Both the position numbers and the translations under genes were made by a program. The notes below the pieces were generated by a model. It did not search any database and was not told the origin of the DNA. It saw only the letters and a list, made by a program, of their open reading frames with translations. DNA of 64,000 bases, taken from sequence record PQ657784; one strand, 5' to 3'. Shown here in pieces: positions 3,063-5,927 of the stretch (positions are counted from its first letter, which is position 1; the number at the start of each line of letters is the position of its first letter). This DNA is from Escherichia phage EPIMRB01.

Positions 3063-3124
3063 GTTATCGAGTTGATGCCATTATATACATCATTTTCTGA
3101 GCGTGTTTTGTGTGCTTTCAAAAT

Positions 3125-3150
3125 GAAGAAAGGGGCAGAAGCCCCTTATG
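3125..3150 (-). terminator. Terminator stem-loop downstream of hoc
   Basis: GGGGC-TTCT-GCCCC on minus strand followed by T-rich tract. Confidence 0.5.
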
Positions 3151-3151
3151 A

Positions 3152-4570
3152 TTATGGATAGGTATAGATGATACCAGTTTCTAAAGCAGTTTTATGAATG
3201 ATGTATCCATTACGTGATTCTTGAACATCAACTTCTGGATAGTCTTTCATCATCTTCTGAAGGGTGTAACGATGCAGGTAGTATTTACTATCTGGATCTT
3301 CAGTTTTCCAATCTTTACCTTCTTCAGTCATTTTTTGGATTTCATCCATAACCCACCAACCGCACCAGATATAAGCTGAAGTACGATGTGGAAGAGGATG
3401 AACATAAGGCAATTCACCTTCTGGTTCTGGAGCAACTTTATCAGTTACCTGAACTTGACCTTCTGCTGTGATAGTTTTGCTATCATAATCAGTAGCAGTA
3501 ACAGTTGCAGTAACTTCAATAGTTTGACTTCCAATAGATGATGTATCAACAGTGTATACATTAGTTGACCCTTCTACTGGAGAAGAATCTTTCTTCCATG
3601 AATATTCGATTTGTGCTTCTTCTGGAGCATCCGTAACATTAGCAGTAAATGTAGCCGAAGCATCTTGCTGAACGTTAATAGAAGGAGGAGTCAATGTAAC
3701 CTGTGGATTCATTGTCTTCTTATTAACTGTCAATGATACTTCATTAGAAGTAACTTCCTTTTCATTGTAATTTTCAGCCGTTACTTGGGCTACACACTTA
3801 ACTGTTTTAGCTCCAACTGTGGTAGGAGTATAGTTAAATGTAGTAGTAGTTTCTCCATCGACCAGAGAACCGTCAACATACCACTGATACGTAGCAGACG
3901 CTCCATCGGGTTGAGAAACTAAGGCAGCAGTAAATTGAACTGGGGTTCCAATAACTCCTGCTGGAGGATTAGCAGGAGTTACGGCTAACGTAGTTGTCTG
4001 TGTTTTCTTATTAACAGTCAGTGACACTTCATTAGAAGTAACTTCCTTTGCATCATAATCTGTCGCGGTTACTTGAGCTACACACTTAATTGTTTTAACT
4101 CCGCTTGCGTCAGGAGTGTAATTGAATGTAGTGCCAGTTGCTTCGCCCACAGGAGAACCGTCAACGTACCATTGATATGTAGCGTTTGCACCTGATGGCT
4201 GTGAAGCTAAGGCAGCGGTAAATTCAATTGGAGTTCCAATCACTCCAGCATCAGGGCTACCAGGAGTTACAGCTAAAGTAGTTGTTTGTGTCTTATTTTG
4301 AACTGTGATAGTTGTACTAATTTCTGCTGTTTCAGGTTCAGATTCTGCAACTTGATTGGTTGCAACTACTTTAATAGTCTTTTGACCGGCAGGTCCTTTT
4401 AGTACATAACTAAAAGTTGCTGACGTTTCTTCCTGTGGAGCGTCGTCTACAGTCCAAGCATATGTAATAGGTCCATCTCCAGTTTGACCACTGGGTGTAG
4501 CAGTAAACTGCTGAGTCTGATCTATAACTCCAGTAGGTGTTTTAGGAGTTATATCAACTGTAAAAGTCAT
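3152..4570 (-). CDS. hoc: Highly immunogenic outer capsid protein Hoc, variant with four tandem Ig-like domains plus C-terminal capsid-binding domain
   Basis: 472 aa; N-terminus MTFTVDITPKTPTGVID and C-terminus ...HKTALETGIIYTYP as in T4 Hoc; internal 96-aa repeat present twice. Confidence 0.9.
   Translation of the reverse strand: MTFTVDITPKTPTGVIDQTQQFTATPSGQTGDGPITYAWTVDDAPQEETSATFSYVLKGPAGQKTIKVVATNQVAESEPETAEISTTITVQNKTQTTTLAVTPGSPDAGVIGTPIEFTAALASQPSGANATYQWYVDGSPVGEATGTTFNYTPDASGVKTIKCVAQVTATDYDAKEVTSNEVSLTVNKKTQTTTLAVTPANPPAGVIGTPVQFTAALVSQPDGASATYQWYVDGSLVDGETTTTFNYTPTTVGAKTVKCVAQVTAENYNEKEVTSNEVSLTVNKKTMNPQVTLTPPSINVQQDASATFTANVTDAPEEAQIEYSWKKDSSPVEGSTNVYTVDTSSIGSQTIEVTATVTATDYDSKTITAEGQVQVTDKVAPEPEGELPYVHPLPHRTSAYIWCGWWVMDEIQKMTEEGKDWKTEDPDSKYYLHRYTLQKMMKDYPEVDVQESRNGYIIHKTALETGIIYTYP
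3719..4294 (-). repeat. Two tandem 288-bp units encoding near-identical Ig-like domains inside hoc
   Basis: Unit 1 at 4007-4294 and unit 2 at 3719-4006, roughly 80-85 percent nucleotide identity; both begin KTQTTTLAVTP and end EVTSNEVSLTVNK. Confidence 0.85.
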
Positions 4571-5309: not shown

Positions 5310-5927
5310 ATGTACCACTTTGTATATGAAACAACAAATCTAATAAATGGTAAAAAGTATATAGGAAAACACTCTACTGATGACTTGAATGATGGTTACC
5401 TTGGTTCCGGTAAGGCAATTCAGCAGGCTATAAAGAAATATGGTGAAAACAATTTCTCTAGAACAATACTAAAAGAGTTTAAAACTTCCGAAGAAGCGTA
5501 CATGTATGAAGAAGAAATTATAACTCCTGAAATAATAAAAAGCAAAAATTATTATAATATGAAACCTGGTGGAATTGGTGGAATTGTTATGACTACAGAG
5601 GTTATAGCAAAGATGAAAGAATCTTCCGCTAAGAGATTTGAAAACTCACCGGGCACGGTATTAGGTACAACTTGTTACACTAATGGAACTAAAAATATTT
5701 TTATTAAGCCTGGAGAACTTGTTCCAGAAGGATTTGTAAAAGGGATGGTTCATCCTAATAGAAAGTCCAGAAAAGGATGTAAAGTCAAACCGACTACCAC
5801 AGGAACTTTTTGGGTCAATAATGGTGCAATAAATAAATTAATACAACCAGACGGTATTATTCCCGACGGATTTATTAAAGGTCGTCTCATGAAAAGAGAT
5901 TCTAAAGGCAAATTTAGTAAGGCATAA
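5310..5927 (+). mobile_element. segD: Freestanding GIY-YIG homing endonuclease (SegD-like), coding 5310-5927
   Basis: 205 aa; N-terminal GIY-YIG module (FVYETTNL...KKYIGKH) and downstream NxxPGG segment; sits between inh and uvsW as T4 segD does. Confidence 0.8.

Follow-up and report, generated by a model that had tools for sequence, protein, structure and literature searches.

The hoc gene of Escherichia phage EPIMRB01 is very likely a common long allele in which the second Ig-like domain (D2) occurs twice in tandem, with a D2 copy number that is polymorphic in Tequatrovirus through recombination, both copies being kept under purifying selection and adding one extra domain to the capsid fiber. 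The gene was analyzed in a window of 64,000 nt from the sequence record PQ657784, and all positions given for this phage are those of the window.

The EPIMRB01 gene is an intact ORF of 1419 nt on the minus strand encoding a protein of 472 aa (Table 1). Its CDS is 100% identical to the hoc CDS of Escherichia phage AUBRB02 (OY979771.1), which is annotated there as "hoc: Highly immunogenic outer capsid protein"; AUBRB02 is a published Tequatrovirus isolated from Beirut sewage, and Hoc is unmentioned in its genome paper (PMC12108427). In a phmmer search against the PDB, the protein matched T4 Hoc (5vf3_Z, 376 aa, encoded by a CDS of 1131 nt) with E = 4e-246. Residues 377–472 align end to end with T4 Hoc 281–376, with differences at 3 of the 96 positions, and this C-terminal domain is largely invariant across 38 homologues. 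The genes around it follow the order gp24, rnlB, 24.2, 24.3 (DUF2774), hoc, inh, segD, and uvsW, and both order and orientation are as in T4, where hoc lies in the late region between 24.3 and inh. The T4-like capsid-binding domain together with T4 synteny identifies the gene as hoc at the sequence level. Directly 3' of the hoc stop codon, at 3147–3130, a hairpin rich in G+C (AAGGGGCTTCTGCCCCTT) precedes a T-run and resembles an intrinsic terminator, as predicted by a terminator scan. An exact copy of the T4 late-promoter sequence TATAAATA was sought immediately upstream of hoc on the minus strand and was not found.

Table 1. Features of the hoc locus of EPIMRB01 (window positions).
Feature	Position	Strand	Basis
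hoc CDS, long four-Ig allele	3152..4570	minus	ORF; 100% match to OY979771.1 hoc; phmmer to 5vf3_Z
Ig-like domain 1 (D1), aa 1-92	4295..4570	minus	Aligns with T4 Hoc 1-92; all-beta in AlphaFold2 model, pLDDT ~90
Ig-like (PKD-type) domain 2 copy a (D2a), aa 93-188	4007..4294	minus	Repeat searches; Pfam PKD and BiPBP_C; seven-strand AlphaFold2 pattern
Ig-like (PKD-type) domain 2 copy b (D2b), aa 189-284, "extra" relative to T4	3719..4006	minus	78% nt/77% aa identity to copy a; best Pfam PKD stretch 196-265
Ig-like domain 3 (D3), aa 285-376	3443..3718	minus	Aligns with T4 Hoc 189-280; Pfam Ig_3 and I-set 289-373; all-beta in AlphaFold2 model
Linker and C-terminal capsid-binding domain, aa 377-472	3155..3442	minus	Equivalent to T4 Hoc 281-376
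Terminator-like hairpin and T-run	3120..3147	minus	Terminator scan: AAGGGGCTTCTGCCCCTT then TCTTCATTTT

Tandem Repeats Finder reported a single array at 3713–4294 (period 288, 2.0 copies, 78% matches, score 724), and an independent repeat search returned the identical pair at a spacing of 288 nt. The two units share 224 of 288 nt and 74 of 96 residues, an in-register similarity far above chance. In the phmmer alignment, residues 1–190 of EPIMRB01 Hoc align with T4 Hoc 1–190, and residues 195–472 align with T4 Hoc 99–376; the two T4 stretches overlap, so T4 domain 2 is represented a second time by the extra 96 aa. The preliminary description of the sequence had claimed that the 472-aa product exceeds T4 Hoc by exactly 96 aa and that a 96-aa unit occurs twice in tandem at aa 93–188 and 189–284, and both claims were borne out by the ORF, the phmmer match, and the repeat searches.

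From the N-terminus, the protein reads D1-D2a-D2b-D3 and then the capsid-binding domain. Pfam gave PKD-type matches in both D2 copies, and Ig_3, Ig_2, and I-set were also matched. An AlphaFold2 model built on 38 homologues (mean pLDDT 84.8) contained four all-beta domains at residues 1–91, 93–188, 189–284, and 285–376, with a pLDDT mostly above 90 within these blocks. Low confidence was confined to the linker and the C-terminal domain, which was modeled in isolation; this may reflect a domain that has been seen folded only on the gp23* hexamer (PMC10385173). In the model, D2a and D2b share their DSSP assignment at 96 of 96 positions, and the 22 residue differences between the copies are enriched in loops (15/43 loop positions versus 7/53 strand positions, p = 0.015). 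The best Foldseek matches in the PDB were strings of four Ig domains, namely Sidekick Ig1–4, Dscam1 Ig1–4, and ICAM-5 D1–D4 (E ~1e-13, probability 1.0); their global TM-scores were low due to a different inter-domain bend in the matched proteins, and from this search only the Ig similarity of the single domains and their number, four, were used. RB49 Hoc was absent from the top 50 of these PDB matches, and the Foldseek search of BFVD matched Hoc proteins. The predicted structure thus supports the view that the duplicated unit is an independent Ig-like domain and that the protein has four Ig-like folds, in agreement with the one-domain expansion originally suggested from its length.

The four-Ig Hoc is an old, widespread allele that roughly half of the sampled T4-like records carry, and it is an ordinary form already present in the databases. 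The whole hoc gene matches 680 phage records, which include phages of E. coli, Shigella, Yersinia, Salmonella, and Hafnia. Prevalence was counted in an evenly spaced sample down the ranking of these records, in which 50 rows span the entire gene: 24 are 1419–1425 nt long and correspond to the four-Ig form (U115, JK23, KRT47, phiD1, teqhal, PP01, wV7, AR1, ime09, and the BASEL phages AndreasVesalius and AlbertHofmann, among others; phiD1, PP01, wV7, AR1, and ime09 are long-known phages), and 26 are 1125–1137 nt long and correspond to the three-Ig form (including T4, RB32, and RB18). The initial impression of an unusual or novel Hoc was therefore not upheld, as the four-Ig form is common among reference Hoc proteins of related phages. 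A 90-nt probe across the D2a/D2b junction, which gave matches over 80% or more of its length in 341 of 606 records, was dropped as a prevalence count, because the search joins out-of-order half-matches lying 288–306 nt apart in one-copy genes; it was replaced by the span of the whole-gene match in the even sample.

Length classes were also taken from the best 120 protein clusters of a large protein collection. Proteins of 376 aa with one D2-type unit made up 77 of these clusters, proteins of 472 aa with two units made up 29, and proteins of about 568 aa with three units, and hence five Ig domains, made up 9, including those of Escherichia phages UGKSEcP1 and UGKSEcP2. BFVD holds a 568-aa Hoc model (A0A653G060, 79% identity) as well as Hoc proteins of more than 1000 aa.

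Some individual records deserve separate mention. In several T4-like genomes, hoc is divided into a pair of annotated CDSs ("Hoc part 1 / part 2", "PKD domain protein (x2)", or a protein of 439 aa with a hypothetical protein), reflecting either frameshifts or sequencing errors in a dispensable gene. The 32-kb record MG010123.1, "Staphylococcus phage SAJK-IND", contains a full four-Ig T4-type hoc (93% identity) and is probably mislabeled or contaminated. A 567-aa five-Ig Hoc (P0096) is only 54% identical to EPIMRB01 Hoc. Of its D2-type units, the second and the third have diverged strongly, scoring 93 and 72 bits with the HMM compared with about 185, a sign that the D2 cassette expanded here separately and much earlier.

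For comparison of the units themselves, 172 D2-type units were cut from 122 proteins. They group by position rather than by genome: the first copies of two- and three-copy proteins form one type ("a") and the later copies another ("b"), and single-copy proteins carry a D2 of either type. When 31 other 472-aa proteins are compared, EPIMRB01 unit 1 falls among their first copies and unit 2 among their second copies. Only two alignment columns, adjacent to each other, are strictly diagnostic between first and second copies, so the separation of the types is fuzzy, which indicates mosaicism of the D2 pool. A model of two clean D2 paralogue lineages was dropped for this reason, and a mosaic pool with a profile-based classifier was used in its place.

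The number of D2 copies (1, 2, or 3) is uncoupled from the rest of the gene and varies on near-identical backgrounds. The 280 aa of EPIMRB01 Hoc outside D2 are identical to those of a one-copy protein (P0054) and differ at a single position (279/280 identical) from those of a three-copy protein (P0002). A neighbor-joining tree built for 121 proteins from the sequence outside D2 requires no fewer than 27 changes of copy number, compared with a mean of 36 when the labels are shuffled.

Several single-copy genes carry both unit types within one D2. The one-copy isolate teqhad (MN895434) has EPIMRB01-like flanks (275/276 identical in D1 and 553/567 in D3 plus the C-terminus), and its single D2 follows D2a up to nt ~204–218 of the unit and D2b thereafter (Fisher p = 8e-9). 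A one-copy contig with EPIMRB01-like flanks (L003) switches from a to b at nt 107–108 (p = 5e-14), although it is a short-read metagenome contig in which an assembly chimera is possible; the breakpoints of these two a>b hybrids differ. Unit 2 of pSs-1 and the single D2 of vB_Eco_Geo are "b"-like except for one short "a" stretch each, a pattern resembling gene conversion. Relative to the EPIMRB01 copies, the single D2 of T4 is a mosaic with a b-like 5' end and an a-like 3' end.

Unequal crossover inside an A-B tandem can leave only a>b single copies, whereas equal recombination between single-copy alleles should give both polarities. With the profile-based classifier, the 81 single-copy units comprised 12 "a", 23 "b", 35 a>b, and 11 b>a units, an imbalance of the hybrids for which the binomial p-value of 5e-4 is optimistic due to the phylogenetic non-independence of the cluster representatives. 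The 35 a>b hybrids have 12 distinct breakpoint positions, and the 19 named isolates alone include 8 a>b and 3 b>a hybrids. Repeated contraction of the tandem would fit this excess of a>b hybrids, with three-copy forms as the reciprocal products; given the non-independence of the samples, the result is supportive but not conclusive. Equal recombination between single-copy "a" and "b" alleles could alternatively have produced the a>b hybrids, and mosaics of the opposite b>a polarity are known.

In another history, the two-copy gene did not originate by duplication and divergence in place; a single illegitimate or unequal recombination joined already-diverged D2 "a" and "b" units from co-infecting phages, and the one-copy hybrids arose by ordinary allelic recombination rather than contraction. 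Single-copy phages with pure "a", pure "b", and both hybrid polarities are in line with such a history, as are the high mosaicism of the D2 pool with its two strictly diagnostic columns and the b>a mosaic D2 of T4 itself. It is at odds with the predominance of a>b over b>a, with the one-copy hybrids on near-EPIMRB01 flanks whose halves match its D2a and D2b respectively, and with the three-copy forms, which require unequal exchange between units. We consider it improbable, and prefer a copy number that is repeatedly changed by recombination between D2 units.

The age of the duplication was estimated from the divergence of the two copies. D2a and D2b differ with dS 0.73 and dN 0.15, and the ratio (dN/dS 0.21) indicates purifying selection on both copies; their longest identical in-register run is 24 nt. 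Because of this dS, the short run, and a nucleotide identity of only 78%, the duplication is old rather than fresh. The tandem duplication first described is thus real and in register, but its copies are not near-identical. A recent duplication specific to this phage or laboratory stock, making an unusual and unstable Hoc variant, would account for two units that match precisely in register and have the length of precisely one domain, but this divergence makes it extremely unlikely, as does the two-copy arrangement with orthologous copies in roughly half of the T4-like records sampled, which come from many hosts and countries. Equally little credence can be given to an assembly or annotation artifact in which no real four-Ig gene exists: repeats are prone to mis-assembly and hoc is divided between two CDSs in several database entries, but 64 differences in 288 nt leave no read ambiguity that could collapse or expand the copies, and the intact ORF has an uninterrupted 1419-nt match in many independent genome records, including RefSeq.

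The same divergence bears on the earlier suggestion that the repeats are a substrate for expansion and contraction. This holds on evolutionary timescales, over which D2 expansion and contraction probably occur, as judged from the one-, two-, and three-copy forms. It does not extend to rapid change within one stock: the 78% identity and the 24-nt run make the repeats a poor substrate for slippage, and we infer that frequent slippage within a single stock is unlikely. The observed expansions and contractions probably took place by recombination between co-infecting phages.

Taken together, D2 behaves as a cassette present in one, two, or three copies across Tequatrovirus, and this polymorphism was probably made and reshuffled by homologous recombination between units, that is, by unequal crossover and gene conversion. 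In T4, one Hoc monomer sits at the center of each gp23* hexamer (155 per capsid), is dispensable for infectivity, and forms an 18-nm (180 Å) linear fiber built from three Ig-like domains along with a capsid-binding domain (PMC10385173). By analogy, the C-terminal domain of EPIMRB01 Hoc would anchor one Hoc per gp23* hexamer center, and its four Ig-like domains would project as a linear fiber longer than that of T4 by one domain, or ~4–4.5 nm. If the Ig string projects linearly, the extra 96 aa should therefore lengthen the fiber by roughly a quarter, from ~18 nm to ~22 nm. The extra domain would provide a second, loop-diverged D2 surface including the SLT motif. This motif occurs at residues 183–185 and again at 279–281 and is conserved in homologues; in ΦPNJ-9 Hoc, which has no domain 3, S183, L184, and T185 of domain 2 form the MUC2-binding site (PMC11853027). 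The long allele may thus present two candidate MUC2-binding sites with different surrounding loops. Binding of mucin glycans by Hoc Ig-like domains has been shown for T4, ΦPNJ-6, ΦPNJ-9, and PMBT63 (PMC11853027, PMC13435897).

The neighborhood of hoc is itself variable. Between inh and uvsW, EPIMRB01 has an ORF for a 205-aa GIY-YIG homing endonuclease (5310–5927, plus strand; Pfam SegE_GIY-YIG, E = 3e-9), which is the counterpart of T4 segD and is labeled merely "hypothetical protein" in OY979771.1. segD is found in EPIMRB01/AUBRB02 and T4 and is absent in teqhad, vB_Eco_Geo, pSs-1, and two contigs (L003 and L004), and the inh-uvsW gap is ~50 nt in the phages and contigs without it. This presence/absence polymorphism lies ~1 kb from the D2 cassette of hoc; a contribution of seg-driven gene conversion to the shuffling of hoc alleles is speculation. 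In the pSs-1 locus (L007, 4539–4988), the 24.3 (DUF2774) and 24.2 (Y10B) CDSs downstream of hoc are shorter or fragmentary compared with those of AUBRB02, T4, and teqhad, which may be a local disruption or an annotation difference.

Variation in the number of Hoc domains is well documented. Fokine et al. (2023) described about 650 Hoc homologues with the same architecture and an Ig string of 1 to 10 domains (PMC10385173). T4 Hoc (376 aa; PDB 5vf3, 8t1x, and others) is collinear with EPIMRB01 Hoc in D1, D3, and the capsid-binding domain and has one D2 unit where EPIMRB01 Hoc has two. The 472-aa Hoc proteins of pSs-1, ime09, HP3, AR1, wV7, PP01, phiD1, and several BASEL phages have the same D1-D2a-D2b-D3-C-terminal layout. 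Their genes and those of other Tequatrovirus phages encoding a 472-aa Hoc are 86–97.5% identical to EPIMRB01 hoc over 1419 nt with orthologous copies, and the proteins differ from EPIMRB01 Hoc solely by point differences and short conversion patches, such as that in pSs-1 unit 2. The 568/570-aa Hoc proteins (UGKSEcP1/UGKSEcP2, A0A653G060, and metagenome contigs) have three D2-type units and five Ig-like domains, one D2 more than EPIMRB01 Hoc.

More distant Hoc proteins vary in other ways. The Hoc-like protein of Klebsiella phage PMBT63 (468 aa) also has four Ig-like domains and has been shown experimentally to mediate mucin retention, but it belongs to another phage genus, is 46% identical to T4 Hoc, and its extra domain is not described as a tandem copy of D2 (PMC13435897). 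The Hoc proteins of ΦPNJ-9 (without D3; PMC11853027), Serratia phage Muldoon (10 Ig domains, 1174 aa), and PG7 (1 Ig domain) (PMC10385173) likewise combine a conserved capsid-binding domain with a variable Ig string; they have other numbers or types of Ig domains and do not represent the T4 sequence with a changed number of D2 cassettes. No explicit account of the T-even D2 duplication or of its copy-number series was found in the literature searched.

In summary, the annotation of the gene as hoc, the presence of the four-Ig allele in hundreds of public T4-like genomes, and the variable number of Hoc domains were already known. What is added here, and is of modest value, is that otherwise near-identical Hoc backgrounds differ in their D2 copy number and bear signatures of unequal crossover. 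As D2 occurs in one, two, or three copies, the three-Ig Hoc of T4 is one state of this polymorphism and not the norm. Users of Hoc as a display scaffold, and those comparing the mucus adherence or immunogenicity of therapeutic T4-like phages, should therefore record the hoc length allele, and the natural series of alleles can be used to test fiber length against adherence. A further proposal, which we put forward only tentatively and think rather less likely to be right than wrong, is that the A-B two-copy form is the older state of the hoc lineage and that many 376-aa alleles are products of recurrent contraction. The D2 number would then be a fast, recombination-driven polymorphism in length and avidity, kept because different mucus or host-surface environments favor different fiber lengths or D2 surfaces. 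If this is true, the hoc genes of Tequatrovirus would offer a natural set of alleles on which the bacteriophage-adherence-to-mucus model could be tested.
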